64,000 nt of DNA, taken from a virus. How positions within the stretch are numbered: position 1 is the first letter of the stretch; every line of letters starts with the position of its first letter. This document shows, in pieces, positions 29,253 to 58,986 of the stretch. The translations under genes and the position numbers were made by a program. The stretch spans positions 61,806 to 125,805 of IMG/VR virus record IMGVR_UViG_3300034102_001514. One strand, given 5' to 3'. The notes beneath the pieces are model-generated. The model ran no database searches. It was not told the origin of the DNA and was given only the letters and a program-made list of their open reading frames with translations.

Positions 29253-29469
29253 TAAGTTTATCCAAGAATTGTTCTATGGAATAAGATTTATTGTTTTGGT
29301 CTTTGATAACCACTTCATCAAGGTTATCAGGATACTTTTGTATCATTTGTTGAAGGGCTTGGAAACCATCCTCTGCCCAAAAGTTTTTGAACAAAACCTC
29401 ACCCAAAACATTCGGAGAAAAGTTTGGATTTTTAACATCATCATCCTTTAACAATATGTAATACATCAT
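29230..29469 (-). CDS. hypothetical protein
   Basis: Packed ORF containing NVLGE..F..FWAEDG and YSIEQFLD. Confidence 0.7.
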   Translation of the reverse strand: MMYYILLKDDDVKNPNFSPNVLGEVLFKNFWAEDGFQALQQMIQKYPDNLDEVVIKDQNNKSYSIEQFLDKLNGLRIIQ

Positions 29470-33547: not shown

Positions 33548-33549
33548 AT

Positions 33550-38480: not shown

Positions 38481-38543
38481 AAATCGCTAATAGATAAATT
38501 GAAAATTTTCTTTATGACACACGATTCGTTTCCAAAACACCCA

Positions 38544-39167: not shown

Positions 39168-39637
39168 TCATCTTTTTCAACTTGTTCTTCTTGTCTTCTT
39201 TTATTTGCCGCAGCAACTTTATCGTTTACACCATAGTTGTAATTGAATACCATTATTTGACCCACATTTTTATAAATCAAAGTTCGGTATCCTTCTTGTA
39301 GTTTTTTCTTTTTGATTTCACCCATATAAAATACTTTGGATGCCTCATCAATTCGTAATTTAGTTAAATCTAATTTACGAACACGAGTAGATTCCGCCAT
39401 AATCTCTGGATAATCTGCTGCTAATTTTGAAAATATAATTGGACTAACCTTATCAAGGTCTATACAATGAAGATACTCTTTAAACCTTGGTTGTAAAACA
39501 AATACCAAATAATCACCCTGTTCACCATTAGTTTTGGTGTAATCAATTTTTGCAACCATACCCCTTTCTAAATTTGACTTTTGAAGTCGTGTGGGGTCGG
39601 TCATTTTACTCCGATGTTGGTTTTTAAAATCAGGCAT
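39164..39637 (-). CDS. hypothetical protein
   Basis: Packed ORF. Contains YRTL; no confident family. Confidence 0.7.
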   Translation of the reverse strand: MPDFKNQHRSKMTDPTRLQKSNLERGMVAKIDYTKTNGEQGDYLVFVLQPRFKEYLHCIDLDKVSPIIFSKLAADYPEIMAESTRVRKLDLTKLRIDEASKVFYMGEIKKKKLQEGYRTLIYKNVGQIMVFNYNYGVNDKVAAANKRRQEEQVEKDD

Positions 39638-40904: not shown

Positions 40905-42316
40905 GCTTTATAAATATCAAATCGTTTACGAGGACTCCAATTTTGGAAACATCCCTCAATAGCTTCAACAAATCTACCACCCATAGATTCCATAGACATA
41001 CCTGCCTCTGACTGAATCCATTGACTACCAATCTCACCATATTCAACAAGAGCTTCTCTACCTTCTTTAAAGGACCACTCAATTTGATTTGCTACTTCGT
41101 AGTAATCAACTCGGTCATCAAAAATGTATGGAGTTGCAGGTGAACCTTGAAGTGATAGGTTAGATGGCCATACAGGAAAAGCCCACTCACCCCAAGATAG
41201 TGATTCTTTGTTTTTCCAATCTCTATGGTTGTGAATAGAACCAATTTTAATATAATCCTCTTCAGTTAGTTGTTTACCATCCAACTCAAATCCACATTGG
41301 TCTTGAAGACCGCCGGTGACATTCACAATAATTGGTGTTCCGGCTCGTAGAGCTTCACAAGACGCAAGACCGAATCCCTCATTTGATGCAATGTTTAGAA
41401 TCACATCGCCTGAATTGTAGAATAGGTTAAGTTCTTCGGTTGAAAATCTTGCATCAGTAAACTTGTATTCACCAAACTTACCATTGTATTTGATTACCTC
41501 TGGAATGTCCGTTCCATTATCATCAATTGGTTGGGTGTGCATGAACAATAGAACCTTTTTGTCTTGGTGTCGTTCTGCAAACTCGTTAAATGCAAGAATC
41601 ATATCACCTGGCACTTTTCTACGAATGTTTCTATTGTTCCAAAGAACCACAAAGTCATACTTATCAAGACCATACTTTTCTCTGAACTTTACCAAGTTTG
41701 AATCATCACTTGGTAGTGGTTTAAACAATTGTGATACTCCGTGTGGAATATATTTGTAAGCCCAATCTTCTTTTTCCATTCCATACTTTTCCAACACTCG
41801 TTTGTTGATACCATAGGTTTGTTTTGAAATAGACAATAACAAATCACACGATGCATAAAATGGAGCATTCCACATTGGGTCTGGCAATGAATCCCAAATG
41901 TTGTAATACATAATAGGAACAAACTGGCGAACTTCGTGTTCCATACCATATAACCATCCCCAAAAACGAGGGTCGGTAAAGTGTAGGATTGCATCCGGCT
42001 TTTCCATATTGATTAGGTTTCTCAATACATCCGGACTTCCGTAACCCGTGGATGCGTAAATCTTTAAGTATGCGTCTTCAATGCCAGTTTCTTTAGCAGC
42101 GTCAGATGATACATCAAACACCTTACCTTCATCAGGGTGTTTTAAAGCAGCACCTAACTGAACCCAATCGTATTTGTGTAGGGTTGATAGGACTATTTCT
42201 TTGCTTTGGGTTGCGATTCCACTATGTAATCGGAGGTCATCCGATAGAAGTAAAATCTTCTTTTTCTTTGGTTTATTAGGGTCTACTTTTCGTAGCTTCG
42301 GTAGTTGTAATTCCAT
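40901..42316 (-). CDS. glycosyltransferase family 4 (GT-B)
   Basis: NNRNIRRK and NEGFGLASCEALRAGTPII..TGGLQDQ. Confidence 0.9.
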   Translation of the reverse strand: MELQLPKLRKVDPNKPKKKKILLLSDDLRLHSGIATQSKEIVLSTLHKYDWVQLGAALKHPDEGKVFDVSSDAAKETGIEDAYLKIYASTGYGSPDVLRNLINMEKPDAILHFTDPRFWGWLYGMEHEVRQFVPIMYYNIWDSLPDPMWNAPFYASCDLLLSISKQTYGINKRVLEKYGMEKEDWAYKYIPHGVSQLFKPLPSDDSNLVKFREKYGLDKYDFVVLWNNRNIRRKVPGDMILAFNEFAERHQDKKVLLFMHTQPIDDNGTDIPEVIKYNGKFGEYKFTDARFSTEELNLFYNSGDVILNIASNEGFGLASCEALRAGTPIIVNVTGGLQDQCGFELDGKQLTEEDYIKIGSIHNHRDWKNKESLSWGEWAFPVWPSNLSLQGSPATPYIFDDRVDYYEVANQIEWSFKEGREALVEYGEIGSQWIQSEAGMSMESMGGRFVEAIEGCFQNWSPRKRFDIYKA

Positions 42317-42332
42317 ATCGTAACTCTTTGGT

Positions 42333-42340
42333 ATAAATAT
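42333..42340 (-). promoter_or_regulatory. putative phage late-type promoter motif (ATATTTAT)
   Basis: 16 nt upstream of the ATG at 42316, at the head of the glycosyltransferase run. Confidence 0.45.
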
Positions 42341-42349
42341 TAAAGTTAA

Positions 42350-44170
42350 TTATTTAAAATACATTTTATTGTTAATTACTAACACATCAACATCAGATTC
42401 TTCAAACAATTTCATAGCGTCTTCGGGCGTTTCAACAATAGGTTCACCCTTGATATTTAATGAGGTATTCATCACAATAGGAACGCCTGTGATTTGTCTA
42501 AATTTATCTATCAAATCATAAAATTTTTCATTGTCTTCTCTACGAAGAGTTTGAACACGACCTGTGTTATCAATGTGAACTGCGGATGGAATTTCTTGTG
42601 GTTTTTTACAAGGAACCGTGAATAACATAAATGGTGATTCAAAATCCATTTGGAACCATTCTTCTTTGTATTCATTCAAAACAACAGGTGCGAATGGTCT
42701 ATACCACTCACGAAACTTAACCCTTGAATTTAGAATGTCTTTCATTTCTTTTCTCCGTGGGTCGGTAATGAATGAACGATTACCTAATGCTCGTGGTCCA
42801 AATTCAGAACGACCTTGAAACCAACAAATAATTTTACCATCTGCAACTGAATTAGCAATAACATCTAAATCCAAGTCAACTGCGGTGTATTTACTTGGTG
42901 GTTGATAATCATAATCAAATCCAAGATACATAATTTCTGAATTTTTATAATCTATTTTATCATTCAACAAAATGTGGTGATATACATACAAAGATGAACC
43001 AACCGATGTACCATCATCACCACAAGCGGGCGCTAAAAAGAAGTTTTCAAATCCACTTTCGGTAATAATTTTATAGTTTGCATTACAATTTAAAAATATA
43101 CCACCAGCCGCACATAAGTTTTTATTGAACTCTTTACTTTCTTGGTAAAGGTCTTGTGAATATTTTACCAATGAACGCTCAGCCATATATTGAATATCAG
43201 CTGCAACATTCATCACCTCTTTTGATTCAGATTCTTCTTTGGTGTAAACATACTGATGTGGTCTTGTGTAAAACTGGTCTTCATCTTTTTTAATTTCTCT
43301 TGGATACCAAATTTTTGGAAATTTACCACTAATTTGAGACCATAACCAATCAATGTAAAGATTATCAAACTCTTCAGTTCGTTTTCTCATAGGTTTGGTC
43401 CATTTTTTCCAATTCTTTTTGGTTTTCGGACTAACTTGACCATATGCTGCCAGCCCCATCAAAACTCCAGCTTTTAATACACCAGGCCCAATACCACACC
43501 ATTCCGTAGCAACATCGTAAAAGTTTCCATACATATATTGTGGATTCTTAAACCGATTTATTTGATTACCCCATCCAAACTGCATAGAACTACAAGCCAT
43601 ATGGTCACTTATACTAGCATCAGCTGTAAAAATCATAGATTCTTTAAATGGTGATAGGTAAAAAGCGTATGAAGAATGTGCGGTATGGTGGTCTACAAAA
43701 TAACCTTGGAATACTTTATCAACACCATCAATCAAAACCCACAATCTAGCACACCCAATGTGGGGTGTTGTTCCACTTCCATATGGTGGGGTTATTCTAT
43801 CCATGTACCTTGGTAAAGTCCAACCTAAATTCTCTATAAGTTGTGGTGTATGATTTGGGTCAACTCCACTTAATATTCTACTTTCAAGTTCGTATGTGCC
43901 ATAGGTGCTTAATGGGTATTTTGTGTCAAGTGGTGAATAAATATTCATAAATGGAATAGACCATTGATTCCAATATCCCATTGTAATAACATCAACATCT
44001 TCAATTGATACACCATTTTTTTCTAAAAAAGTATCAAATACTTCACGACTAATAAAATCATCTTTTTTTCTACGAGATAATCTTTCTACCGCAATAGCAG
44101 ATACAATTTTACCATCACGCATTAGTGATAGAGACGCATCATGGCCTGTGTGAATTCCTAATATAATCAT
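42350..44170 (-). CDS. O-carbamoyltransferase (NodU/CmcH family)
   Basis: GHDAS, ERLSRRK, HHTAH, MGLAAYG, GGIFLNC, GRSEFGPRALGNRS, KFREWYRPFAP and NTSLN. Confidence 0.94.
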   Translation of the reverse strand: MIILGIHTGHDASLSLMRDGKIVSAIAVERLSRRKKDDFISREVFDTFLEKNGVSIEDVDVITMGYWNQWSIPFMNIYSPLDTKYPLSTYGTYELESRILSGVDPNHTPQLIENLGWTLPRYMDRITPPYGSGTTPHIGCARLWVLIDGVDKVFQGYFVDHHTAHSSYAFYLSPFKESMIFTADASISDHMACSSMQFGWGNQINRFKNPQYMYGNFYDVATEWCGIGPGVLKAGVLMGLAAYGQVSPKTKKNWKKWTKPMRKRTEEFDNLYIDWLWSQISGKFPKIWYPREIKKDEDQFYTRPHQYVYTKEESESKEVMNVAADIQYMAERSLVKYSQDLYQESKEFNKNLCAAGGIFLNCNANYKIITESGFENFFLAPACGDDGTSVGSSLYVYHHILLNDKIDYKNSEIMYLGFDYDYQPPSKYTAVDLDLDVIANSVADGKIICWFQGRSEFGPRALGNRSFITDPRRKEMKDILNSRVKFREWYRPFAPVVLNEYKEEWFQMDFESPFMLFTVPCKKPQEIPSAVHIDNTGRVQTLRREDNEKFYDLIDKFRQITGVPIVMNTSLNIKGEPIVETPEDAMKLFEESDVDVLVINNKMYFK

Positions 44171-46481: not shown

Positions 46482-46900
46482 TATTTTCCCCACTTGCCGC
46501 GTTGAACAATCTGAGCGATAATTCCGTAGACCGAAAGGTCTTCGTATGTATCTTGGATTGACTCACCAACCTCATCTGGCTGACCCAATACAACCATCTG
46601 CTTCAAACGATTAACTTTATCGTTAATACGGAACCACAGCCCGGTCAAAGACAATCTAACCTCATCTTGGGTTTGAAGTGATGTTCCTACGGAGATATTA
46701 CCTGGTCCGTAGTTTCTCTGCTTTTTACAAAAAGTAAGATACATCTCATCCAAAATGTTTTTGAACTCTTCGGTGGTTTGCGGGTAGTTTTCTTCACAAT
46801 ATGTAACCGCAGATTGTTCTTTGGACCCACCATAGGTAGGGCGTTCTTCTTCACCAACCCACTCTATTTTGGTTTTTGCTTCTTTAATCATTTTAGCCAT
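46481..46900 (-). CDS. DUF1599 / nucleotide-modification-associated domain 1 protein
   Basis: KKQRNYG, RINDKVNRL and ESIQDTYEDLSVYGII. Confidence 0.8.
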   Translation of the reverse strand: MAKMIKEAKTKIEWVGEEERPTYGGSKEQSAVTYCEENYPQTTEEFKNILDEMYLTFCKKQRNYGPGNISVGTSLQTQDEVRLSLTGLWFRINDKVNRLKQMVVLGQPDEVGESIQDTYEDLSVYGIIAQIVQRGKWGK

Positions 46901-47343
46901 TTATCTATTTCTTTTGGGTCAACCCCATATTTAACAATTATTGATTTGATTTCATCCTTGGTAAGAATATCAAGGTAATCCAAAACTTCACGAGATGATA
47001 CTTCATAGTATTTACAAAAATACTGAATTACATTTTCATGCCACTTATCTTCGGACTTACCTTTGATATACTTGTTGAATGATTTTTTCTTTGGTAGAAT
47101 ATCCAAGTAAAACTTGTAAACCTCTCGTGGGGTTAGCTGTCCGTTGGTGTATTGATTTACAATGTTTACAATTTCAACATTATCAGCACCCATAGACAAA
47201 AATCTATTAACCATATAGGTTTCAAAAGATTTCTTATCCATCGCAGACAAGCTCTCCCACGGAGTTTTAAGGTGAGTAATACCACTCAAGTGGTCAAATA
47301 ACCCCTTGGCTTTTACTACACCTTCATCACTTTTCTTCACCAC
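46888..47343 (-). CDS. clamp loader small subunit (T4 gp62-like)
   Basis: LFDHLSGI, YMVNRFLSM and LPKKKSFNKYIK. Next to the gp44-like gene. Likely GTG start near 47340-47343. Confidence 0.78.
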   Translation of the reverse strand: MVKKSDEGVVKAKGLFDHLSGITHLKTPWESLSAMDKKSFETYMVNRFLSMGADNVEIVNIVNQYTNGQLTPREVYKFYLDILPKKKSFNKYIKGKSEDKWHENVIQYFCKYYEVSSREVLDYLDILTKDEIKSIIVKYGVDPKEIDKWLK

Positions 47344-47608
47344 CTTCAAAAAACTCTTTTGGAGTAAACTTTGGGTGAACAGTTCCACATTCATTACACA
47401 CAACCACAGGGATTGGTAACATTGATTGTTGACCATTGGGAGACATTACCGCTGGGATTTCTTTAAACATAGTCACTTCCGTGAAGAAAATACCTTCACA
47501 ATTCGGACAAGTTACTGTTTTGAGTTTAAAGGGGTCAACATTTAATTTTGGTGCTTGTTGAGTTGGTTGTTGTTTACCACCCATTGGAATTACTTTACCT
47601 TTTGCCAT
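47327..47608 (-). CDS. Zn-ribbon protein
   Basis: CPNC...CNECG. Confidence 0.75.
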   Translation of the reverse strand: MAKGKVIPMGGKQQPTQQAPKLNVDPFKLKTVTCPNCEGIFFTEVTMFKEIPAVMSPNGQQSMLPIPVVVCNECGTVHPKFTPKEFFEGGEEK

Positions 47609-47609
47609 T

Positions 47610-48524
47610 TTAGATACTTGTTATAATATTTAACATCATCGCCATTACATTGATTTCTTTATCAACGACCATTGCGTCTTTATACTGACCATCCGCGATG
47701 TTTAAGATGGTTTGTCCTACTTTACCTTTCCCATAGTCATCTACTCTATCGTAAAGGGTTCTATACAAAGGTTCAAAGCTTTTAACACCTGAATCAGCAA
47801 TAATTTGTCTGACATTAGTGAACTTTGTTTTTGCGTCATTATTAGACATCAATTCTTGCACTACTTTTTCGGTGTAATTTGCTTCAAGAGTTGATTGTTT
47901 ATCAATCACCAATTTTCCGTTGATGACTTGTCGTTGAGCTGCGTTTAAAACTCTACGAATGTCCGGATATCCACTATTAACAGTAAAAGCAAGGTCTGAC
48001 ATTTCAAACTCAATACCTTCGGCTGTTAGAATATCATTCAATCGTTTTGCAACATCCTTTTTAGATGGTGGGGTAATTGCAAATGTTTGGCAACGAGATT
48101 GGATGGGGTCAATTACTTTTTCAACAAAATTACAAGTTAAGATAAAACGAGTAGATGCTGAAAATGTTTCCATCAAATTACGCAGAGCTGCTTGAGCATT
48201 AGGAGTCAAATAATCAGCCTCATCCAAGATAATAACCTTCCACTTTCTAAAACCCATAGATGATGCAAATCCACGAATTTTATCACGAACTGCGTCTACG
48301 GAGTTTTCATCGGAAGCGTTAATATACATCAAATCACAATCAATCTGATTTGTAATAATTTTAGCCAATGTAGTTTTACCCGTACCGGCTTGACCATACA
48401 ATAAGAGGTGAGGGACATCTTCGTTTTGAATATAAATCTTTACCTTTTCAAGGATGTGTTCGTTTCCTACATATCCTTCTAATGTATCTGGTCGGTATTT
48501 TTCAACCCATAGTGAATTACTCAT
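47610..48524 (-). CDS. clamp loader large subunit (RFC / T4 gp44-like)
   Basis: LWVEKYRP, GQAGTGKTT, INASD, ILDEAD and IQSRC. Confidence 0.95.
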   Translation of the reverse strand: MSNSLWVEKYRPDTLEGYVGNEHILEKVKIYIQNEDVPHLLLYGQAGTGKTTLAKIITNQIDCDLMYINASDENSVDAVRDKIRGFASSMGFRKWKVIILDEADYLTPNAQAALRNLMETFSASTRFILTCNFVEKVIDPIQSRCQTFAITPPSKKDVAKRLNDILTAEGIEFEMSDLAFTVNSGYPDIRRVLNAAQRQVINGKLVIDKQSTLEANYTEKVVQELMSNNDAKTKFTNVRQIIADSGVKSFEPLYRTLYDRVDDYGKGKVGQTILNIADGQYKDAMVVDKEINVMAMMLNIITSI

Positions 48525-49708
48525 CTTCCTACTTCTTTTAAATATTTTTCTTTACAATCTTCCCACGACATACCAATGATATCAAGATAAAACAATGACT
48601 CTGGCTTGATACGACCCTCTTCGTGGAGTTTTTCGTATCGTTTGATTGCCTTTGGCTTCCACCACTTCATTGTGTATTCATCACTATCAACAAACTTATC
48701 CTTCATTATCAGTTGGTCTTCAGCAATCTCATTACGGAGAAACTCATTACCATTCTCATACATTTGGGCGAAATACACACCTCGTTTGAATCCGTGTTGG
48801 TAGTGAGAACCTTTTAACCCAAGTTCTTTGAAAATCATATTGATGACTTTCTGCTTTACTCCGGTTGCGGGTCCATCTACACCTTCTTTTTCAGCAGTTT
48901 GAATAGCGTACTGTTCGGATTTGTTTTCTTTAATCCAATGGTGCCAAGGTTCATAAACTGAATCATCTGGCTTTGTAGCTACCTTACCTGCGGATTCTCC
49001 CAAAGTTTTGAAGTGGGGGATACCATTATATTGAGAGTGAATACCATACAAAGAAGTGGTTCCAACTGCAATCAAAGTTTGTCCGTATTTTTCTTTCCAA
49101 TGTTTACGAACTACCTCTGATGTAGCCATACAAGCAATCAACTTACCACCCAAAAAATTGTATCCCAAAGGTTGGGTGCAGACAATTGTGGATGCGATAG
49201 TAGTATGATTCAACTTACCATCTTTGTATTTGTTGTCTTGGGTCCACCCAATGTATTTATCACGAACTCCCAATGATGTGACATCTGAAGCCAAGGAAAT
49301 CATTCCAAGTATTTTACCACTAACCCTATCTTTAATGTAAATCTTTACATTCCGACCAGGATTAGCATCAAAGGACATCGTATGAATTAGTTTTCGGATT
49401 TCAGTCCAGCGAGTAGATTCTTTTGCATCATCAACAATTTCTACATAAGGTTCAAGCGCTTCAATTTCTTTGATTGTTTGTTCCTTATTTTGAATGTCTT
49501 TCGGCATCCAAAGAGCATCGTAGTGAAGCGCCAGACCTGCTTTTCTCTTCATAGAGGTAGCCAAGTCATAGTTCCACTCCTGCCACTTTTTGTAAAGTGT
49601 TTGTTCTTCTACGGACATAGAAGAAAGGTAGTCCATATTTTCAATGAACTTACCCTTTTCTACATCATAGTCAAACGCAGGTTTCGCTGGTTCAGTATCC
49701 CAAAACAT
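48521..49708 (-). CDS. DUF4338 / DruA-like protein
   Basis: RDKYIGW, QPLGYNFLGGKLIA and TTSLYG..SQYN. Confidence 0.75.
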   Translation of the reverse strand: MFWDTEPAKPAFDYDVEKGKFIENMDYLSSMSVEEQTLYKKWQEWNYDLATSMKRKAGLALHYDALWMPKDIQNKEQTIKEIEALEPYVEIVDDAKESTRWTEIRKLIHTMSFDANPGRNVKIYIKDRVSGKILGMISLASDVTSLGVRDKYIGWTQDNKYKDGKLNHTTIASTIVCTQPLGYNFLGGKLIACMATSEVVRKHWKEKYGQTLIAVGTTSLYGIHSQYNGIPHFKTLGESAGKVATKPDDSVYEPWHHWIKENKSEQYAIQTAEKEGVDGPATGVKQKVINMIFKELGLKGSHYQHGFKRGVYFAQMYENGNEFLRNEIAEDQLIMKDKFVDSDEYTMKWWKPKAIKRYEKLHEEGRIKPESLFYLDIIGMSWEDCKEKYLKEVGR

Positions 49709-50409
49709 TACTTTACTTCTACGAGGTAGTAAGATGATTTGTATCCTTCGTGTTCAAAAGAAACCGAAGCAAGACCTTGTGATGATACCTTCATAGAAGA
49801 TGCTTTAGCACCACGATTTGCGTTCAAGATTTCTTTCAAGTATTTAGCAGAGAATGAAATAGGTTGAACATCACTTTCACAAACACAATCTACATTGATA
49901 GAGATTCGGTTAGAGTTGATTTTAGAATAACCCAATACAATCTTACCTGCGTTTGATTCACCACTACAAGTAAATGTAAAGGTATCCGAATCACTCAAAG
50001 CACCCTTTGATTTAATAAAGGTTCCAATGAATGCTTCATCCAAAGTGATGGTAGCATTAAAGTTGGGGAGTTGCTTGAGTTCTGGAACTGCTGGGATTAC
50101 TGACAATTCAGCCAACACATAGTTTACCGAAGTTTTAGTGTCTGAAAATACCAATGAACTTTCATTAGATTTTACATCAACACTTGCGTCAAGAACCCCC
50201 AACAAACCTTTTAGTTGTGAAGTAGTGTAGATACCAAATTCTCCGTTAGGGAATGTTTTATCTTCACTTTCTACAACACCCAAAAGGGTTTTGTCATCGG
50301 AGATGAATCGGACTGATAGTCCTTCATCAGTTGAGACCACTTTAACGGATTCAACTTCACCGCCAAGATTATAACGAGAGACAAATCCCTCAAATGAACT
50401 TTTTTTCAT
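49708..50409 (-). CDS. sliding clamp (T4 gp45-like)
   Basis: 233 aa. EFGIYTTSQL, FSAKYLKEIL and VSSQGLASVSF...YYLV. Between PolB and the clamp loader. Confidence 0.82.
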   Translation of the reverse strand: MKKSSFEGFVSRYNLGGEVESVKVVSTDEGLSVRFISDDKTLLGVVESEDKTFPNGEFGIYTTSQLKGLLGVLDASVDVKSNESSLVFSDTKTSVNYVLAELSVIPAVPELKQLPNFNATITLDEAFIGTFIKSKGALSDSDTFTFTCSGESNAGKIVLGYSKINSNRISINVDCVCESDVQPISFSAKYLKEILNANRGAKASSMKVSSQGLASVSFEHEGYKSSYYLVEVK

Positions 50410-50431: not shown

Positions 50432-50463
50432 CTAATATACGAAATAATTTTGAATTATCCAAA
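50432..50463 (-). promoter_or_regulatory. Bacteroidetes-type sigma70 promoter
   Basis: TTTG-N20-TATATTAG. Confidence 0.65.
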
Positions 50464-51069
50464 CCATTGGTTAATTTTTTGTTTTCTTTTTTTAAATCGG
50501 TAAATGTAAATGTTCTTTGTAAGGGTTTCCACATACTGAGCACTTCCATCATCCAATGCATTTTTCAATTCAATAGCAACGGGTTTTAATTTCCCATTGT
50601 GTTTGTTTCTTAAAGTTTTGCCGTGATACCTACGACCATTCCACATAATAACTCTTCCCGTTGATGTTTCACCCATACACTCAAAATTTGTAGCTTTATA
50701 AACCACCCCCTCGTGTCCAAATGTTTTATCAGCGTATGAGATTATCATTTCTAAATCAGTATTTCGTTGTAACCACCGAAGTGTCCAACCTATAAAATAC
50801 GATTCGGTATTTTTTGGAGTATCATCAATACACACCAATCTTTTTAGTTCTAAAATCTTGGATGGATTTTTGGGGTTATATTTTTCAGCAACCCCAAGCA
50901 TACCCAACGACCCATACACCATAGCACCAATCATAGTATCACCATCCATCAACTTAAAACAATATGAAATGTGTAATCCATTCATATTTTTTGAATAGTG
51001 ATGGGTTTCCACGAAATCTACAATTTCACTCCGTGGGCAAGGTTCTACTATGTAGTTGGTTACGCTCAT
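50455..51069 (-). CDS. Mom-like (GNAT-fold) DNA modification protein, paralog 1
   Basis: HHYS, LELKRL, NTESYFIG and ISYADKTFGHEGVVYKATNF. Confidence 0.8.
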   Translation of the reverse strand: MSVTNYIVEPCPRSEIVDFVETHHYSKNMNGLHISYCFKLMDGDTMIGAMVYGSLGMLGVAEKYNPKNPSKILELKRLVCIDDTPKNTESYFIGWTLRWLQRNTDLEMIISYADKTFGHEGVVYKATNFECMGETSTGRVIMWNGRRYHGKTLRNKHNGKLKPVAIELKNALDDGSAQYVETLTKNIYIYRFKKRKQKINQWFG

Positions 51070-51272
51070 TAATTTCTTCGCTCGTGGAATTCATCATGCA
51101 GCATTTCATTGATTTTTTCAATGGTATATGCATTTTGTAAAACTGAATCTAACACATCATATGCCTCATCCTCTGAAATATCACCAAGGTGGTGAACATC
51201 ATCGGTGTGCCAGAGATTATCTACATAATAGCCATTCTCCTTCAATACTTGTTTTGCTTGTTCAATAGTCAT
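51069..51272 (-). CDS. small acidic hypothetical protein
   Basis: MTIEQAKQVLKENGYYVDNLWH, directly after a promoter. Confidence 0.7.
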   Translation of the reverse strand: MTIEQAKQVLKENGYYVDNLWHTDDVHHLGDISEDEAYDVLDSVLQNAYTIEKINEMLHDEFHERRN

Positions 51273-51276
51273 AATA

Positions 51277-51308
51277 CAAATATACAAAAAATAAAATTAA
51301 AATCCAAA
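51277..51308 (-). promoter_or_regulatory. Bacteroidetes-type sigma70 promoter
   Basis: TTTG-N20-TATATTTG. Confidence 0.7.
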
Positions 51309-53816
51309 AAATTGTGATGCTTTTAAAAGATTAGGATTTGGTTTATCCCAATTCATTGCATCGTAAAAATCATCAAGTTTGTTTTCCAAATCTTGTTTCC
51401 ATATTTTATTATAGTCAATGTATTGTTGAACAAACTGATTGATTTGGGGTGGGTCATTATGACCTGTAAATGCGGTGGTTTCTAAACCAAGTGGATTCTT
51501 TTTCAAGTAAACCCACTTAATCTTATCACCATCCTTCATAGGTTCATACTTGTAAGGAGCGTTATAGTGTTTCAATAATCTATTATAAGTTATAGCAGCT
51601 TTAACATGCGCTGGGGTTCCTTTTTCAAATTCACCCAATGCGTATTCCTTACGAGATTTTACATACTTGGACATATCCTTCACAGCAGAGTTCTTTGCAA
51701 TATCCGTAAAGTTTTGGTCCGACATTTTTTCTTTGAATTTGATGAGTTTATCATCAATTATAGATTTATCAACACCTTTTAGAATATCCAACAAAACAGT
51801 CTCCATCACCTTCTTAAAGTAAGTTGGGAATGATGACCTACGAACATCCAATCCCTTTACATCCATTTTATCACAAGGAACTGTATTGTCGTTGATAATC
51901 CATTGTGCGTATCTTTTCTTTGATACCCAAAACCCACCCTTTGCGATGGTTTCTTGTTTGATATCAAATCGGTGAGAGTCCACATTGAATAACTTTTTAG
52001 ACATTGTGTCGTAGACCTTGTTGATGTGGGCTTGAACCTCTTGAGCAACTGATAAAATCGCAGGAACCATTTGTTCATCAGACTCCACATCAATTTGTGG
52101 GTTTCTTGCTTTTACAAGCGGAGCTGCCTGATAGAATACGGAATCAGTATCGGTATACACATTGTAGTCATCCTCTTTACCAATGATACTTTTGTAGTAT
52201 TGGTTAGCAATCATCTCCGTGGTCTTGATTACCGTCTGACCTGTAATTGTGGTGGCTTCCGCATTATCCACATCATAAAATCTGAATGATGGTAGACCTA
52301 ATACTCCATAAAGGGAGTTCAACATAATCTTTTGAACCAACTGGCGTTGAGAATAAAACTTGTAAAGTTCATCATTACCCGCATTACCATGCTTTTTCAT
52401 CAAGTCTTTATACTCAACTCGTTTGTCAAACCAAACATTTAAGATTTCAGGTATTACACCAACTCTATCTTGGGTATACAATACACCATTTGATGATAGT
52501 GAATAGTTTGATTCCGTAATAAGTTTTTGGAATTCATCACGGGTCATTGGTGGAAACTCTACGCCAGAATCATCTACAATTGAATATGTATCAATTTTGT
52601 TTTTCATATAATCCTCCGAAGAGAAAGATTTGAGTTTACCAATCTTGGTTTCTGGCGACACATTCAAGGTCATAATAATGGATGGATACAGCGATGTTAA
52701 GTCCAAGTCATATACCCATTTGTAAAGACCAGGTTTGGGTTCTTTCACATATGCGCCGGTGAACTTACCTTCACCATCCGACCCATCTTCGTTTTTGTCT
52801 GCTCTTCGTGGTTTGTCTGGCGCGACACGATTACTTCTACGCAAGAAAGTTAAGATAGCACCTTCCAACCACTTTGATGAGAATAGGAAATCTTCATAAA
52901 ATACGTGCCCTGCGTGACAAATCGCCTGAGCCAATTCAATGAATTGAAGTTTTCTATCCATTTCAACAACCAACTCCACATCCACCAAGTTATACTCAAT
53001 GAACTTTTCCAAGTCATCTCGGAACAATTGGTCAAGATTACCTTTGTATTCAATCTTACCCCTACCCAATACAATATTAGCAATGGTATCCAATCGGTAG
53101 TTTGGGAATTCTTGGTAGGTAAAGTTTTTGTAAAGAGCAAGGTAGTCTAAACAACTTACTCCCGCGATAATATAACGATTACGATATTTGTTGTATCCAA
53201 TCTTACCAATGGGAGAAAGTTTACTAGCCATTCTCTCACCCAACACATTCTTTAAACGATTATATAAGTAGGTGACATCAAAGTAATCAATGTTCCAACC
53301 CGTAACGATTGTTGGGTTGATTTCTTGCCATTTGTTTAGGAATGCTTCAAGTAGGTCAGCTTCAGTTTTAAACGAACGAACCTCTGCTCCTTTGATGGTT
53401 TTATCAACATAATTGTCTGATACAACATATACGAAATAGTCGTTGGTTACCGAATCGTGACCTGCAATTGAAGTGATTGCATTACCTGCTTTATCAATGT
53501 CCGGCAGACCCGTATTCATCTCAACCTCAATGTCAAAGGTTAGAGTGGTATGACCGGTTGATACCTCATCTGAATCACCATATTGGTCAATCAGAAAACG
53601 AGTCATTTCGTTTACATCACTTTCGTAAAGTTTAAGATTATCCTCTTGTTTCCAAAAGTTTATCTTTTTAAGACGCTCTCCGTGAATAGAAGTAAAAGAA
53701 CCATTCCCATCTCTAACATAAGCATATCTACGGTACTTACTTGTAAAATAACCTTTTTGGTCATCCCAACAATGGATGATACCATTTTCTTTTTCATAGT
53801 ATACATTTTGATACAT
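51297..53816 (-). CDS. family B DNA polymerase (T4 gp43-like)
   Basis: Exonuclease FDIEV, GWNIDYFD and YNLVDV. Polymerase DLTSLYPS, KIMLNSLYG and YTDTDS. No intein or intron seen. Confidence 0.97.
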   Translation of the reverse strand: MYQNVYYEKENGIIHCWDDQKGYFTSKYRRYAYVRDGNGSFTSIHGERLKKINFWKQEDNLKLYESDVNEMTRFLIDQYGDSDEVSTGHTTLTFDIEVEMNTGLPDIDKAGNAITSIAGHDSVTNDYFVYVVSDNYVDKTIKGAEVRSFKTEADLLEAFLNKWQEINPTIVTGWNIDYFDVTYLYNRLKNVLGERMASKLSPIGKIGYNKYRNRYIIAGVSCLDYLALYKNFTYQEFPNYRLDTIANIVLGRGKIEYKGNLDQLFRDDLEKFIEYNLVDVELVVEMDRKLQFIELAQAICHAGHVFYEDFLFSSKWLEGAILTFLRRSNRVAPDKPRRADKNEDGSDGEGKFTGAYVKEPKPGLYKWVYDLDLTSLYPSIIMTLNVSPETKIGKLKSFSSEDYMKNKIDTYSIVDDSGVEFPPMTRDEFQKLITESNYSLSSNGVLYTQDRVGVIPEILNVWFDKRVEYKDLMKKHGNAGNDELYKFYSQRQLVQKIMLNSLYGVLGLPSFRFYDVDNAEATTITGQTVIKTTEMIANQYYKSIIGKEDDYNVYTDTDSVFYQAAPLVKARNPQIDVESDEQMVPAILSVAQEVQAHINKVYDTMSKKLFNVDSHRFDIKQETIAKGGFWVSKKRYAQWIINDNTVPCDKMDVKGLDVRRSSFPTYFKKVMETVLLDILKGVDKSIIDDKLIKFKEKMSDQNFTDIAKNSAVKDMSKYVKSRKEYALGEFEKGTPAHVKAAITYNRLLKHYNAPYKYEPMKDGDKIKWVYLKKNPLGLETTAFTGHNDPPQINQFVQQYIDYNKIWKQDLENKLDDFYDAMNWDKPNPNLLKASQFFGF

Positions 53817-54934
53817 TAATTAAAATTTTTTCGTGCGGTATTAACAAAGTTTTCTTCTACATTCCAACTTTTTAATTGGTGTTCCCAAAGTAAGGATTCT
53901 GCAATATGTGTTACATCAGGACGTTCAATATCACCATCCAATAATTTTATTACCATTTCTTTAAATTCATTTTTACCATTGTAAAGTAGTGGATAATCAG
54001 TACCTACCATTTCAGGATAACAAAAGTCATTTGGTAGTAAATATGGAACACCTCTACTTAACCCATCAGTTGCTGACATAGACCACGCAGAATATCCTTG
54101 GAATGTACCTACACCAAAATGTGCTTTTGACATTTGGTTCATATACACATCTCTATCGGCGTGTCCAATGTATTTTGTATATGGTTTACCCATTTCTTTT
54201 AATGTGGTCCATACTTGGAAATCTTTACGAGTTTCCCATAACTCATCCATTACCTCAAAGAAGAATTCCGAACCTGTATACACACCCCATCTATGATTAT
54301 ACAAAATAGTTTTGGGTTCGTATGTAGATGTTGGAGTTGCTGAATCACAACCCAAATACCAAGGTTGAATGATTTGTTCTAATTGTTCAATGATATGTGG
54401 TTGAAATGATTCCGATGCACGTTTAATTACTAAATCTTTTACCCATTGTGAGTTTACACCACAAACTTTCATTTCCAACATACCTTTGATATTTCTCCAA
54501 AAAGAATTATCATCTCTAGCACCATTATCTTTAATTTCCCACCAATGGCAATATCCAATAATAGGTTGAGTTTTATTGTAGATACGAGTAATCTTATATT
54601 CGTTAGTCCATTCGGGTAGGTGTGACCATATTAGGTTAAATTCACCCTTATATTTGTCAATAATCCTCTCAAAAAACTTATGTGGGTAATCTACCCTCAT
54701 CTTTGGTGGAAAGCAATCCAATCCATCCATTTTAAGCAATTGAACATTTGGATATTCAAATTGATTGATTATACCAGGGTGGTTATTCAAATCAGGATAT
54801 GGTAGAATCCACTCCCAATCTTTTCCGATTTGTGTATTATCTAAAAAGGACTTGAACACCAATAGGAACGAATCCCTATTGATGTCTTTAACAGCCCCAA
54901 AGTTTGTATAATTTGGTATTACTAAAACTCTCAT
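53816..54934 (-). CDS. GT-B glycosyltransferase adjacent to DNA polymerase
   Basis: WSHLPE, YCHWWE, YNHR and WSMSATDGLSRGVPYLLP..CYPEM. Stop overlaps the polB start. Confidence 0.7.
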   Translation of the reverse strand: MRVLVIPNYTNFGAVKDINRDSFLLVFKSFLDNTQIGKDWEWILPYPDLNNHPGIINQFEYPNVQLLKMDGLDCFPPKMRVDYPHKFFERIIDKYKGEFNLIWSHLPEWTNEYKITRIYNKTQPIIGYCHWWEIKDNGARDDNSFWRNIKGMLEMKVCGVNSQWVKDLVIKRASESFQPHIIEQLEQIIQPWYLGCDSATPTSTYEPKTILYNHRWGVYTGSEFFFEVMDELWETRKDFQVWTTLKEMGKPYTKYIGHADRDVYMNQMSKAHFGVGTFQGYSAWSMSATDGLSRGVPYLLPNDFCYPEMVGTDYPLLYNGKNEFKEMVIKLLDGDIERPDVTHIAESLLWEHQLKSWNVEENFVNTARKNFN

Positions 54935-54935
54935 A

Positions 54936-56723
54936 TTATGCTCCGAAGTTTAAACCCGTTTCAAGGATTTGATAAATTGTATTAATTGATGAAGTGACAA
55001 TCCGTTTTTCAATTAGACTCAAATTGTCAGACATCTTCTCGTTATGGTCGGCAAGCATCTCCCAATACTCATTTGGTGTACAATTCCAATTCTTATATTT
55101 CTGATTACCAGTTAGGTTATCATCGGTCATACCCAAAAATCCATCTTTAGCATCACCTCCGGTTGAGTTGGGTGATTTATGTAACCATTGGAAACCCTCT
55201 CCGGTCTTGAAGTTTACAAAACTCAACACATCAGTAGATAGTGGATATAGTTTCAATCGTTGGGGGATACCCTCTGACTCAAGGAAGGATGACATTCGTG
55301 TCAACGATTGGTCACGATATTCAGCTTGAAGGTCACGGTCTTTAGAACCAGCTTTCAAGCTAGCATCAACATTCTGAAAAACATACTTGAACAATTTGTC
55401 AAATCGTTGACCGGCACTTGTTGAAGAGTAAACGGAAGATTGTGTTCCAAAATACTCCCATACCAAGATTTGACTACCTTCGTGGTTAACACTACCATTT
55501 AGTAGTTTAGAATACTCATTGACTACTTTAGATGTTAACTTTGATAGTCCAACCGATTTATTGGTTCGTTTGAAGTATAAAACAAAGGTGAATAACAAAA
55601 TTCCGGTGTGGTATTTCTTAATGTGAAGGTCATCCATTGCTGTGATTTTTTTCCCACTTAAATTATGATTTACAATTTTGTTAATCGTATTTGTGATTGT
55701 CTTCCAATCATCCGATTCAAATACCTTTACATATGTGTTCTCATACCATTTAATTAACTCACCATAACTCACTTCCGAAACTACACGCCAGAACATTTTT
55801 TGCCAGTATTCGGTTTCGTTACCATCATCCTTACCATTCTCAAACCCAACAACCATATCGTTGAATTTCTTAAAGTCATCAATCGTTTCACAATAGTGAG
55901 AACCAATGTAGGCTTGGAGGATAGGAATAATCTTAGCTACTTTGTGTTTATCAGCGTAACCCTGATGCCCATACATTAACTTACCTTTACCAAAGATATC
56001 AGTTCCAGCTTTATTAGTGAAGTATTGTAAAACTGTGTCGCCACAATAGTAAGTTTTGTACTCATCTGTTCGTTTCAAAGGAGTCATATAGAAGTTGTAA
56101 GCCAACCAAGCATTTGGTTGTCGGTTACAATTAATCATATCCTTTTCAAATTGTTTTACAGTGTGTAGATTAACGACAAATGCCATTTGACTATTATTAT
56201 AGAATTGACGAAACTCGTCAGAACCATCCACTACATTTTTCAGAGAATACTGAATATCAAGTTCTTGGGGCGTCTTGGTATTAAAATAGGCAGTAATCAT
56301 GTTGATTATACACTTATCATCTTCATTTGTGATGTCGTAATGTTCAATGATGTCTTCACACATCATCAACCACTCATTACCCGTAATGACTTTACTATCA
56401 AAATACTTACCAAACGCCAAAGAAAACATTGTTCCGTTATCACGAATGTAACCAACTTTTGATGGTTTGTCTTTTAGGACAGATACCAATAATTGACCCT
56501 TTTCGGAGATACCACTTATGAAACGAATCAAGTGGTGAAGTTTACCCCAATACTTTTTATGAGTATCCAAATCTTCATCTCGGTTACCCTCATTATCAAG
56601 AGCACCATTTTCAATCAATTCACCACACATTTGGAATGTCACAGTACCCATTGTCCTAACAAAAATAGCGGGCTTTGCTTTGTTCTTACCAACAAACTCA
56701 AGTGCTTTTTTTAAATTTTTCAT
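54936..56723 (-). CDS. large hypothetical protein (possible degenerate C-terminal HNH-like motif)
   Basis: ~595-aa ORF with its own promoter. C-terminal WLHKSPNSTGG...DDN. Confidence 0.7.
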   Translation of the reverse strand: MKNLKKALEFVGKNKAKPAIFVRTMGTVTFQMCGELIENGALDNEGNRDEDLDTHKKYWGKLHHLIRFISGISEKGQLLVSVLKDKPSKVGYIRDNGTMFSLAFGKYFDSKVITGNEWLMMCEDIIEHYDITNEDDKCIINMITAYFNTKTPQELDIQYSLKNVVDGSDEFRQFYNNSQMAFVVNLHTVKQFEKDMINCNRQPNAWLAYNFYMTPLKRTDEYKTYYCGDTVLQYFTNKAGTDIFGKGKLMYGHQGYADKHKVAKIIPILQAYIGSHYCETIDDFKKFNDMVVGFENGKDDGNETEYWQKMFWRVVSEVSYGELIKWYENTYVKVFESDDWKTITNTINKIVNHNLSGKKITAMDDLHIKKYHTGILLFTFVLYFKRTNKSVGLSKLTSKVVNEYSKLLNGSVNHEGSQILVWEYFGTQSSVYSSTSAGQRFDKLFKYVFQNVDASLKAGSKDRDLQAEYRDQSLTRMSSFLESEGIPQRLKLYPLSTDVLSFVNFKTGEGFQWLHKSPNSTGGDAKDGFLGMTDDNLTGNQKYKNWNCTPNEYWEMLADHNEKMSDNLSLIEKRIVTSSINTIYQILETGLNFGA

Positions 56724-56747
56724 ATCTTTCAATTTTTATTTATATTA

Positions 56748-56779
56748 CAAATATACGACATTTTTTTTAAATTACCAAC
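56748..56779 (-). promoter_or_regulatory. Bacteroidetes-type sigma70 promoter
   Basis: GTTG-N20-TATATTTG. Confidence 0.6.
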
Positions 56780-57149
56780 CACCGGCAAAAATAATTTTCT
56801 TCAAATCACTTTTAGCAGTTTCAAGTACCTTGGTTAAAGAAACACTTGAAATTGGTTCAGTTGAATAAGATAGGTTTCCGTGGGCAGTTTCTTTCAACTT
56901 ACAAACACTTTGTGCCATATTCAACATAGGTTTTGGCCAGTTCTTGATGGTATCAACTTCACGCTTCATACCACCATCACCCATATGTCCATTGTATTGG
57001 AACTCCAAAATGTAGTGATTGGTGATTGTTGAGTGAGGGTAAACTGAAAACTGAACCTTACTCATTTGTTTACCATTGTTTTTTAATTTGAAGATTCGTT
57101 TCTCACGACCTTCAGCTAACATAGGGGAAACTTTTTCTACTATTTTCAT
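56772..57149 (-). CDS. hypothetical protein
   Basis: Single gene behind a TTAACA-box promoter. Confidence 0.7.
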   Translation of the reverse strand: MKIVEKVSPMLAEGREKRIFKLKNNGKQMSKVQFSVYPHSTITNHYILEFQYNGHMGDGGMKREVDTIKNWPKPMLNMAQSVCKLKETAHGNLSYSTEPISSVSLTKVLETAKSDLKKIIFAGGW

Positions 57150-57174
57150 TTGTTATTTCTTATTGATTACATAG

Positions 57175-57229
57175 TAAAGATACGAAAAATATTGGAACTG
57201 CCAAATTGCTAATGTTAAGAAATTGTTAA
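57175..57229 (-). promoter_or_regulatory. sigma70 promoter with upstream TTAACA-N5-TTAACA box (near-duplicate of 10049-10103)
   Basis: TTTG-N19-TATCTTTA. Plus-strand TGTTAA at 57213-57218 and 57224-57229. Confidence 0.75.
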
Positions 57230-57231
57230 AT

Positions 57232-58026
57232 TTACCAAAAGTTTACCATATTTTCTGGCTCGTAAGTTTCGTATCGTTCACTCTTTGGTAGAATGTCGCT
57301 GATATCCTTGGGTGGGGTTTCACACGGATGTTTGAGTGAGTTCATCAGTTTCTTCTTCTCGCCTTTATTCGTTGGTAGAATTTGAATGTATCTTAATTTA
57401 GACATTTCCTTTCTACGCCAGAACTCTTTATATCCATCCTTACCAATTTCGGTTTTGAGATGTTCTAAATTGTGAGAACCCCACTTTGAAAATACAGTTC
57501 GTGAGTGAATATAAGTTCCATCTTCACCTTCTAATGAAATACCATAGTTCGGCATCAATTGGATTTTATTGGTGTCTTGGAATAACCAATTCGTAGCACG
57601 ATAAATACCACCTAAATGACCTTGGAATGGGTCTGAATAAGATAATAACATTTTGATGTTAGGAGCGTGTTCCCTCATCCACCTAAATGTTTGTCCCAAT
57701 GCGTATGACTCAATGTTTGACCCATACCCATCGTGAATAAACAATCGTGTTAACTCCAAACATTGGTCGTTACCCAATCCATCAATGATTGAGGTTACAG
57801 CCGACCTACCAACGGGAAACCCATATACAGCGACACCAATCAGTTGTTCATCATTACCAAGAATGTCCAATTCATCAGTTTTGTAAAATATCCCCAAGGC
57901 GTACCTACACATAGTCCACGCATGGGAATAATGATAGGTCACAATCATATCCTTCGCAATGGCTTTGTTGATTTCACGAATGGATACTTTTGAGGTATCT
58001 ACATATGTCTTATTGTCCTCTTTCAA
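57232..58026 (-). CDS. Mom-like (GNAT-fold) DNA modification protein, paralog 2
   Basis: YHYS, LELTRL, NIESYALG and LSYSDPFQGHLGGIYRATNW. Confidence 0.8.
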   Translation of the reverse strand: MKEDNKTYVDTSKVSIREINKAIAKDMIVTYHYSHAWTMCRYALGIFYKTDELDILGNDEQLIGVAVYGFPVGRSAVTSIIDGLGNDQCLELTRLFIHDGYGSNIESYALGQTFRWMREHAPNIKMLLSYSDPFQGHLGGIYRATNWLFQDTNKIQLMPNYGISLEGEDGTYIHSRTVFSKWGSHNLEHLKTEIGKDGYKEFWRRKEMSKLRYIQILPTNKGEKKKLMNSLKHPCETPPKDISDILPKSERYETYEPENMVNFW

Positions 58027-58771
58027 TTGGGTCTAATTTGTAGATTTCTTCTATAAATTCTTCATTTTCCGTTGGATAGGGTAATGATGGGTATTTTAAT
58101 GACTTCAATATACGACTTTTTTTTGAATTATCCAAAATATAAACATACCGATGTTTTCTTAATTCTTTTTTTATCCAAAAAGTAGCTGATGTCATCTCTT
58201 GGATTTTCTTTGGATTGTTGGTTCCAAACTTTACAAATGATGTGCGTGAGTGAGTCCAATCACCACCTTCTTCCCACTTAAATAACCACGAGTCGTTTGG
58301 TCTGATACGATTACCTTGATAAATCCAATTGGTAGACATATAAACAGTCCCCTTATGACCAACTTTTGGGTCAGAGTATGAAATGAGTCCTCGGATGTGG
58401 GGTGCGTTTTCCCTTAACCACTTAAAGGTCTGACCCACAAACCAACTTTCTACATTACACCCATATCCATCAAATACAAATAATCTTGTGAGTTCCAACA
58501 CTTCGGTTCGGGCAAGTAGGGGTGAAATAGATTGGCCGGAATGTCTACCTATGGGGTCTCCATAAGTAGCAACTCCAACTAACTCTTCGTTGACTCCACT
58601 AAAAAATTGGTGTTCCGTTTCTGACTTGTAAAAAAGCCCTAACGCATAAGATACTTTTGTCCAAATACCACTATAATGGTTATTTACAATAATGTCCTTT
58701 GCAACTGATTTTGCAATAGGTCTTATTGAAAATTTGGATGGGTCAAAATATACCTTACCTTCTACTTTCAT
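58010..58771 (-). CDS. Mom-like (GNAT-fold) DNA modification protein, paralog 3
   Basis: NHYS, LELTRL, NVESWFVG, ISYSDPKVGHKGTVYMSTNW, KHRYVY and LPYP. Confidence 0.8.
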   Translation of the reverse strand: MKVEGKVYFDPSKFSIRPIAKSVAKDIIVNNHYSGIWTKVSYALGLFYKSETEHQFFSGVNEELVGVATYGDPIGRHSGQSISPLLARTEVLELTRLFVFDGYGCNVESWFVGQTFKWLRENAPHIRGLISYSDPKVGHKGTVYMSTNWIYQGNRIRPNDSWLFKWEEGGDWTHSRTSFVKFGTNNPKKIQEMTSATFWIKKELRKHRYVYILDNSKKSRILKSLKYPSLPYPTENEEFIEEIYKLDPIERGQ

Positions 58772-58986
58772 TGGTAGTCATTGAATTCACCAAAAAGAAT
58801 ATGAGTCCAAGTTTCACCTTTTACAATCTTACGAATGTTAGCGGATGATACGCCATTGTTTCGTGCAAGAACACGAATGTTTCTATGCCCAATAGCCCAC
58901 AATTTACGAATAGATTTTACCTGTATTTCCGTTAATTTATGTTGTGGGTGTGATTCTCCTCGTAACGACATTCTAAATGTTATCAT
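58768..58986 (-). CDS. stand-alone HTH protein (type found at the C-terminus of phage HNH endonucleases)
   Basis: RGESHPQHKLTEIQVKSIR...LARNNGVSSANIRKIVKGETW. Confidence 0.7.
   Translation of the reverse strand: MITFRMSLRGESHPQHKLTEIQVKSIRKLWAIGHRNIRVLARNNGVSSANIRKIVKGETWTHILFGEFNDYQ

Follow-up and report, generated by a model that had tools for sequence, protein, structure and literature searches.

Three Mom-family GNAT genes in the replication module of an uncultured T4-like phage

Three Mom-family enzymes at one locus

The DNA examined here (the window) is the last 64 kb (64,000 nucleotides, positions 61,806 to 125,805) of a 125.8 kb viral record, IMG/VR IMGVR_UViG_3300034102_001514, which is estimated to be 70% complete and which comes from a T4-like phage. 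Its replication region, where every gene lies on the minus strand, contains three genes for GNAT proteins of the family of Mom, the DNA-modifying enzyme of phage Mu. Two of them, Mom-C and Mom-B, lie in tandem behind a small gene for a helix-turn-helix (HTH)-like protein; the third, Mom-A, lies apart from the pair. Both Mom-A and Mom-B end in short aromatic motifs, referred to below as tags. The four genes are:

58768..58986, minus strand: HTH72, a 72-aa HTH-like protein, first gene of the Mom operon
58010..58771, minus strand: Mom-C, 253 aa, a Mom-family GNAT, upstream partner in the tandem pair, without an aromatic end tag
57232..58026, minus strand: Mom-B, 264 aa with a TTG start, a Mom-family GNAT with the C-terminal tag ...NFW
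50455..51069, minus strand: Mom-A, 204 aa, an accessory Mom of a short (~200 aa), distant lineage, with the C-terminal end ...QWFG

An earlier note, made by inspection of the sequence, had proposed that the three larger open reading frames (ORFs) encode Mom-like GNAT paralogs, and this was borne out by profile searches. All three matched the Pfam family PF25680 'Mom', for which the curated cut-off is 27.1 bits, with scores of 121.9 bits for Mom-A (E 3.5e-35), 156.8 bits for Mom-B (E 7.4e-46) and 144.8 bits for Mom-C (E 3.6e-42). They also matched phrog_1384, 'Mom-like DNA modification protein' (E 5e-54, 7e-44 and 1e-48, respectively), and exactly these three proteins gave Mom matches in the whole 125.8 kb record. 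The motifs HYS, LELxRL, NxES and SY[AS]D..GH.G..Y..TN[WF], to which the note had drawn attention, are invariant columns in a three-way alignment. Each of the three is a stand-alone protein.

The structural evidence points the same way. Mom-B matched the sequence of PDB 8bv8, the crystal structure of Mu Mom (E 8.9e-8), and an AlphaFold model of Mom-B (mean pLDDT, the predicted local distance difference test, 87.4) aligned with chain 8bv8_A with a Z score of 20.7 and a root-mean-square deviation of 4.2 over 184 of 222 residues (chain range 20-241). The next-best GNAT reached a Z of 11.7, and ordinary GNATs aligned over only about 130-145 residues. The aligned range of the Mu protein spans its Mom-specific HTH-like insertion (residues ~175-209); in Mom-A and Mom-C this region is kept as judged by sequence alignment only. 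The three ORFs are genuine Mom-family enzymes, at an identity to Mu Mom of only 24-27%.

Mu Mom is described as a dimeric GNAT that transfers glycine from Gly-tRNA(Gly) to the N6 of adenine in double-stranded DNA, the adduct then rearranging to N6-carbamoylmethyl-adenine (PMC13219725). The earlier note had given N6-carbamoylmethylation as established, a description that needs updating accordingly. In the work cited, the 6-NcmdA nucleoside is reported at 308 u. According to the same source, Mu Mom acts after replication, at SAS sites, and modifies about 20% of Mu adenines; its HTH-like insertion is needed for activity. R111 and S124 are essential and R151A has no detectable activity, while activity falls greatly in D149A and drastically in H58A, Y59A, W48A, Y159A and W181A, W48 being at the dimer interface. 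The Mu record that we aligned begins 10 codons after the numbering of that paper, and all nine residues checked fit at this offset. The equivalents of H58, Y59, R111, S124, D149 and Y159 are invariant across the three Mom proteins of the window. Among unique orthologs, all six are kept in every Mom-A (14/14) and Mom-C (52/52), and in Mom-B five are kept throughout (68/68) and D149 in 66 of 68.

Median ratios of nonsynonymous to synonymous substitution (dN/dS) were 0.09 for HTH72, 0.13 for Mom-C, 0.09 for Mom-B and 0.17 for Mom-A, values in which many pairs have saturated dS, with 0.007-0.19 for the least diverged pairs; all four genes are under purifying selection. All three Moms look catalytically intact on these grounds, and none resembles a pseudo-enzyme. 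They share with Mu Mom (PF25680; PDB 8bv8; PMC13219725, PMC7261163) the Pfam family, the GNAT core with its insertion and the six residues above. They differ in being three where Mu has one, in the aromatic end tags of two of them, in two residues (R151 and W48, taken up below) and in their place amid the replication genes of a lytic T4-like phage, whereas mom lies at the end of a temperate transposable phage.

Conservation of the operon and the relations of its members

HTH72 and Mom-C overlap by 4 nt, Mom-C and Mom-B by 17 nt, and the Mom-B start codon, TTG or ATG, is at the same position in the 64 unique orthologs listed; HTH72-Mom-C-Mom-B is a translationally coupled operon. The earlier note had described a small HTH gene ahead of an overlapping tandem pair; the gene, the overlap and their conservation stand, while the HTH label draws on weak matches (HTH_28, E 0.12; phrog_59, part of an HNH-endonuclease family, 3e-4). 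In Mu too a small upstream gene, com, overlaps mom, but Com is a zinc-finger translational activator, whereas HTH72 contains no cysteine and so is not a zinc finger of the Com type. It could possibly be a regulator or a DNA-binding partner.

A search with Mom-C found 41 viral loci, 39 of which form a close family. HTH72 (66-100% identity) and Mom-C are present in all 39, and a full Mom-B follows in 31; the remaining eight loci end within or just past Mom-C. The Mom-C/Mom-B pair is present in all five near-complete close relatives, two of which have a third copy. A Mom alignment used as query brought up 80 more distant loci, of which 54 contain two or more Mom ORFs; the count for L107, one of the 54, is inflated by a split gene. 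Of the 66 unique Mom-B-type genes, 50 combine an FW or YW ending with 1300 nt or more of upstream sequence; in this set Mom-C is directly upstream in 43 and HTH72 lies within 2.5 kb upstream in 48. The HTH72-Mom-C-Mom-B unit is therefore kept in the replication module across a broad clade of uncultured T4-like phages. In cultured phages, no record held two places matching Mom-B (251 places in 251 records) or two matching Mom-A (287 places in 287 records). One locus carries a triple Mom tandem behind HTH72 (L056:4544-6801; Mom-C-like 67%, a second copy 40%, Mom-B-like 62%).

Such pairing could mean that Mom-B and Mom-C form an obligate heterodimer, in which the tag for the clamp, or the recognition of DNA, would fall to one subunit and a share of the catalysis to the other. 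The 17-nt overlap with its translational coupling, the co-occurrence of the pair in 43 of 50 loci, the tight dimer reported for Mu Mom (PMC13219725) and the aromatic tag on Mom-B alone of the two would all suit this arrangement. However, HTH72 is followed directly by Mom-B in four of the same loci, and two near-complete relatives, G010 (175 kb, 90% complete) and G007 (238 kb, 100% complete), carry a single Mom, of Mom-B type, with no Mom-C. As the full catalytic set is also present in the orthologs of both proteins, and the Mu dimer residue W48 is not conserved, we regard an obligate heterodimer as distinctly unlikely; a facultative one is possible. The earlier note had offered different sequence specificities or a heteromer as the two explanations for the paralogs, and it is the former that remains the best reading.

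Mom-B and Mom-C are 43% identical. They have 62 conserved columns in common and differ consistently at 11, which include positions 66-67, beside H58/Y59, and several that lie within the DNA-binding insertion or precede it. A quick tree, in which each was closer to relatives elsewhere, had suggested that the two were acquired separately, but this idea was dropped after an approximately unbiased (AU) test, which did not reject their sisterhood (p 0.60; the constrained tree was 10.6 log-likelihood units better). They may be the product of an old tandem duplication. Redundant duplicates are normally lost, and the strong purifying selection on these two proteins, their joint retention across a deep clade in spite of their divergence and the 11 positions fixed differently all speak against the idea that the copies are spares, making the same adduct in the same motif and kept for dosage or against phage- or host-encoded inhibitors. 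That the catalytic residues are identical in all three proteins, and that Mom-A is dispensable in most relatives, would fit such redundancy, which nevertheless seems to us very doubtful.

The position of Mom-A is different. It lies behind PolB (the family-B DNA polymerase) and p72, in only 5 of the 23 loci that span PolB to the sliding clamp and in two of five near-complete relatives, and it is 28-30% identical to Mom-B and Mom-C. In the quick tree it falls in a separate 7-row clade with a support of 100% (SH-aLRT, an approximate likelihood-ratio test), and its best cultured matches are in phages of Corynebacterium, Geobacillus and Bacillus (~55%) and of Synechococcus (~50-53%). This pattern is compatible with a mobile accessory gene, Mom-A belonging to a distant lineage of the family. 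For Mom-B, the closest cultured homolog is the Mom-like gp53 of Polaribacter phage P12002L (NC_028924), with 45% identity over 90% of the length, which falls in the same 51-row clade. Unlike the phage described here, that phage, of 48.7 kb, has one copy, which lies beside DNA methyltransferase genes rather than replisome genes and whose protein ends in ...CDW, not FW.

End tags, a DruA-like neighbour and the proposed role of the Moms

Three further genes of the replication module bear on how the Moms might work:

51297..53816, minus strand: family-B DNA polymerase (PolB; PF00136, 3.1e-41), with the C-terminal tail ...ASQFFGF
49708..50409, minus strand: sliding clamp, gp45-like, 233 aa (phrog_223 'DNA polymerase processivity factor', 5.4e-10), between Mom-A and the DruA-like gene
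48521..49708, minus strand: DruA-like protein, 395 aa (PF14236, 3.2e-25), overlapping the clamp and clamp-loader genes

The end of Mom-A (...QWFG) resembles that of PolB (...QFFGF). Across relatives PolB ends in FF[GSA]F or, in another lineage, in [EN]RFF, and FW or YW is the ending of 56 of the 66 unique Mom-B-type genes, behind a linker that varies in sequence. Among 15 distinct Mom-A-type tails, four are of WFG type, each from an ortholog with 74% identity or more, whereas the tail of Mom-C (...KL[DE]PIER..) has no aromatic tag. The tail types of PolB and Mom-B co-vary in 31 of 33 distinct pairs (26 with FFxF and [FY]W, five with RFF and another Mom-B tail, and two exceptions), and some pairs are near-copies: a PolB ending ...SMNRFF is found with a Mom-B-like ...SMEKYF, and one ending ...LERFF with ...ERFYE. 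The DruA-like proteins have an aromatic pair at the other end, FW at residues 2-3 in all 20 distinct N-termini save one with FF; the protein of the window begins FWD. Elsewhere in the window, a 147-aa protein (5485-5928) ends in ...DENFW, with the same terminal NFW as Mom-B.

Short terminal motifs of this kind have a precedent in the clamp clients of T4 and RB69, where the polymerase gp43 docks on the clamp gp45 by a C-terminal PIP (PCNA-interacting protein) tail (PDB 1b8h) and RNase H by its N-terminus (PMC3012046). The likeness suggests that the tags of Mom-A and Mom-B, which echo the polymerase tail, may dock on the sliding clamp. The two cases differ in that no tag here fits the Qxxhxxaa pattern given by that source, and in that the clients described there include no DNA-modifying enzyme.

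The DruA-like gene had been called DUF4338 in the earlier note, correctly, as it scores 89.4 bits against PF14236 (cut-off 27) and matches PADLOC DruA1 at 1.2e-23. Every one of the 23 loci that run from PolB to the clamp has it, and its ESM-Atlas clusters are 97-100% viral. A model (pLDDT 84.9; predicted template-modelling score, pTM, 0.81) has a GNAT core at about residues 80-340. When this model was searched with Foldseek against 350,542 chains, the best match was Mu Mom, 8bv8_A (E 8.5e-4), the only one at or below 1e-3; VIA also placed Mom first (Z 9.5 over 166 residues), with SpeG (9.0) and AAC(6') (8.8) within one Z unit. At the sequence level the DruA-like protein and Mom were not linked by hhalign (probability ~1%) or by cross-searches with hidden Markov models, which did no better than reversed controls, and a PDB profile search with the DruA-like protein gave no matches. 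We regard the GNAT fold of the modelled protein as well supported, and any special kinship with Mom as only nominal.

DruA-like and Mom genes co-occur in the four Mom-bearing genomes checked, and neither was found in Microcystis phage Mel-JY01, the nearest cultured relative by polymerase (48% identity). In another lineage a Mom-B-like gene occupies the slot between clamp and clamp loader that the DruA-like gene has here, and a Mom-A-like gene adjoins the DUF1599 gene. In one of the 50 loci with an FW-type Mom-B (L074), a short DruA-family protein (PF14236, 7e-23) takes the Mom-C slot. These shared slots, together with the co-occurrence, suggest a related role, and the DruA-like protein is a candidate fourth acyltransferase of the module. 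Short DruA-family proteins of about 255 aa were seen directly after HTH72 in two loci, in place of Mom-C at L074:5265-6026 and ahead of Mom-C at L089:4480-5247 (4e-21). The match to PF14236 and PADLOC DruA1 is shared with DruA (DUF4338) of type I Druantia; the gene here differs in belonging to a phage, where it sits between clamp and clamp loader, and it is for the phage protein that the GNAT fold was modelled. No other Druantia genes turned up in the Pfam scans of the window ORFs, which gave phage replication, sugar and structural families; no genome-wide PADLOC search for DruB-E was made. Literature searches on the DruA fold returned only a preprint on structural DruA look-alikes in Synechococcus phages.

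Taking these results together, we propose that the three Moms are catalytically competent enzymes that would act independently, by homology with Mu Mom as aminoacyl-tRNA-dependent GNATs. They would modify a base in double-stranded phage DNA after replication, most likely at the N6 of adenine, and so block host restriction. The core of the system would be the coupled HTH72-Mom-C-Mom-B unit, with Mom-A as an exchangeable addition from a distant lineage. Most likely the paralogs differ in the sequence contexts that they modify, so that more adenines would be covered than by one enzyme, and Mom-B and Mom-A would probably reach new DNA by docking on the sliding clamp through their polymerase-like tags. 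Adenines in the SAS context number 8,808 of 81,633 (10.8%) in this genome of 35% GC, so enzymes that prefer other contexts would have to act if a large part of the DNA were to be protected; we offer this as a rationale and not as evidence. We give this reading as a whole, with its independent Moms, differing contexts, clamp docking and anti-restriction role, moderate confidence.

Several observations weigh against it. The donor, the substrate and the motifs would all be carried over from a homolog of low identity. The equivalents of R151 and W48 are conserved in none of the three lineages: the R151 column holds H, T or S in Mom-A, G, E, F or D in Mom-B and K, N, V, E or A in Mom-C, and the W48 column holds mostly S, A, K or N. 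The two residues are traits of Mu Mom rather than of the whole PF25680 family, and binding geometry or oligomeric state may differ from those of the Mu enzyme. In favour of a glycine donor, this phage has 13 tRNA genes (G000:C1:42665-52074, outside the window), including tRNA-Gly(GCC) at 43252-43325, and a sister genome (G001) has 10, again with tRNA-Gly(GCC), but here the glycine tRNA is just one of 13. The co-variation of tails represents only two or three independent lineages, and terminal aromatic pairs are not enriched in the proteome (11 of 164 genes, with 9.9 expected). Disorder in the Mom-B model is confined to residues 262-264, and the extension before them is predicted to be ordered. 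The small subunit of ribonucleotide reductase (RNR) also has a conserved aromatic tail, and the known partner of that tail is not the clamp. On the side of the proposal, parts of the PolB gene, of HTH72 and of all three Mom genes are covered by contigs from four lake metatranscriptome libraries; these may stem from carried-over DNA, and gaps in the cover carry no meaning.

Some of the same facts would suit a different substrate, at least one paralog acting on charged tRNA or on a protein, as other tRNA-linked GNATs do, in host takeover instead of anti-restriction. The substrates of GNATs are not predictable from the fold (PMC13219725), R151 is not conserved, and identity to Mu Mom is low. We think it very unlikely all the same: the Mom-B model aligns across the DNA-binding HTH-like insertion, a region kept by sequence in all three proteins, the genes lie inside a replication module, and the end tags resemble the tail of the polymerase. 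A further possibility, which we consider rather unlikely, is that the paralogs use different amino acids from charged tRNA, or different bases, so that two or three distinct marks would be written at the fork through the clamp, the DruA-like GNAT being a fourth nucleic-acid acyltransferase. If that were so, it would be the first biochemical lead for the DruA of Druantia defence. We found no account of DruA function, and the structural link of the DruA family to GNAT/Mom-type enzymes is a testable lead.

The presence of several Moms in one phage is already published. Pseudomonas phage PA5oct is reported to encode 'five momylating enzymes', read as a means of overcoming more than one restriction system, and the Mom domains of jumbo phages are described as typically fused to restriction-endonuclease-fold domains (PMC7824862). 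The phage described here resembles PA5oct and other multi-Mom jumbo phages in having several Mom-family genes in one large genome; by their description it differs from them in the stand-alone form of its Moms, in the HTH-Mom-Mom operon and in the setting among polymerase, clamp and clamp-loader genes. Literature searches found nothing in print on the operon, the embedding in a T4-like replisome or the polymerase-like tags, and the momylation literature, judged by titles and abstracts, held nothing on this arrangement.

Mom chemistry was worked out only in 2026 and for a single enzyme, and the two or three diverged, apparently intact Moms of this clade are natural variants from which one could learn what sets specificity for DNA motif and donor. 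Having several Moms probably guards the phage DNA against a wider set of host restriction enzymes than a single Mom could. If the tags do bind the clamp, DNA hypermodification would be physically coupled to replication. Mom enzymes could also become tools for sequence-specific protection of DNA.

The surrounding genome

The assignment to a T4-like phage follows from the gene content. The window carries a family-B polymerase, clamp, clamp-loader subunits, RNR, a DnaB-type helicase and a PD-(D/E)XK nuclease. The sister genome G001 (168 kb, ~96% protein identity across the region) supplies the part absent here, with a T4-type portal, gp23 capsid, sheath, baseplate, gp32, RecA/UvsX and a 5'-3' exonuclease. 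Phage Mel-JY01 shares the gene order PolB, clamp loader (HolB and A subunit) and PD-(D/E)XK nuclease. A megablast search of the region against cultured phages gave no match, and 14 DNA runs labelled as lake water, from 14 studies, each contain at least 91% of the sampled words of the region; one of these runs may be the sample of origin. The T4-type late promoter box TATAAATA was considered as a clue to timing and set aside as uninformative, with five occurrences in the window against 8.8 expected.

The earlier note had also drawn the interspersed neighbours into one multi-enzyme hypermodification system. Three intact Moms and a conserved pair remain of that proposal; Mom-A is accessory, and the neighbours are for the most part variable. 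Between Mom-B and the GT4-like glycosyltransferase gene discussed below lies a variable island of two genes:

54936-56732, minus strand: p598
56772-57149, minus strand: p125

Neither has a family in Pfam, PHROGs, NCBIfam or PADLOC; p598 recurs in a few relatives and p125 in none of the 41 loci. The GT4-like gene and the 2-oxoglutarate (2OG) oxygenase gene are likewise variably present among close relatives, and the reading of the interspersed genes as one system is not supported. The 372-aa 'GT-B' gene said to be coupled to polB does overlap it by one base, and its ESM-Atlas features are like those of GT4 clusters (0.97-0.98), which is the sole support for the label: no Pfam, PHROG or NCBIfam profile matched. 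The DUF1599 gene belongs to the conserved replication core, and its match is below threshold (22.2 bits; cut-off 25).

The call of a 2OG-Fe(II) oxygenase was sound (PF13640, 1.4e-10). The family is of prolyl-hydroxylase type, and a second copy in G001 comes directly after collagen-repeat fibre genes and before glycosyltransferases, which points to protein rather than DNA substrates; the oxygenase probably acts on proteins. PF13640 is not a family known to act on DNA. In G001 (L132:9220-19871 and L133:1883-3592) the genes of two collagen-repeat proteins (1363 and 1527 aa) precede those of a 2OG-FeII_Oxy_3 oxygenase, a GT2 glycosyltransferase and a GT1 fused to an OGFOD2-like domain, a set that looks like collagen hydroxylation and glycosylation for phage fibres.

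Pfam scans of the window and of the extra 57 kb of G001 found no methyltransferase, hydroxymethylase or deazaguanine genes, apart from methyltransferase-domain matches that lie in a sugar cluster. A search for thymidylate synthase gave no sign of a hydroxymethylase pathway: four of five relatives have ordinary, strong ThyA-type matches, and G001, the closest relative, has none. The sugar-modification cluster is large (29466-44170 and 5912-7952) and contains several GT1, GT2 and GT8 glycosyltransferases, a carbamoyltransferase (42350-44170), a PIG-L deacetylase, WbqC, DegT-type aminotransferases, an NAD epimerase/dehydratase, methyltransferases and an N-formyltransferase. The cluster may serve the virion, the host surface or DNA, and a stretch of about 9 kb within it is different in G001.

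Three other features of the window may be mentioned. At 26110-28029 a 639-aa protein combines a cohesin domain with a C-terminal sorting domain of the type IX secretion system (T9SS; PF18962, 3.6e-10), a hint of a host among the Bacteroidota; the nearest cultured relative, however, is a phage of Microcystis. A GroEL-type chaperonin is encoded at 2422-4020 (Cpn60_TCP1, 1.5e-72). The ORFs at 47327-47608 (93 aa) and 46888-47436 (clamp-loader A subunit) overlap by 110 nt as listed, and the A subunit probably starts downstream of its first in-frame start codon.

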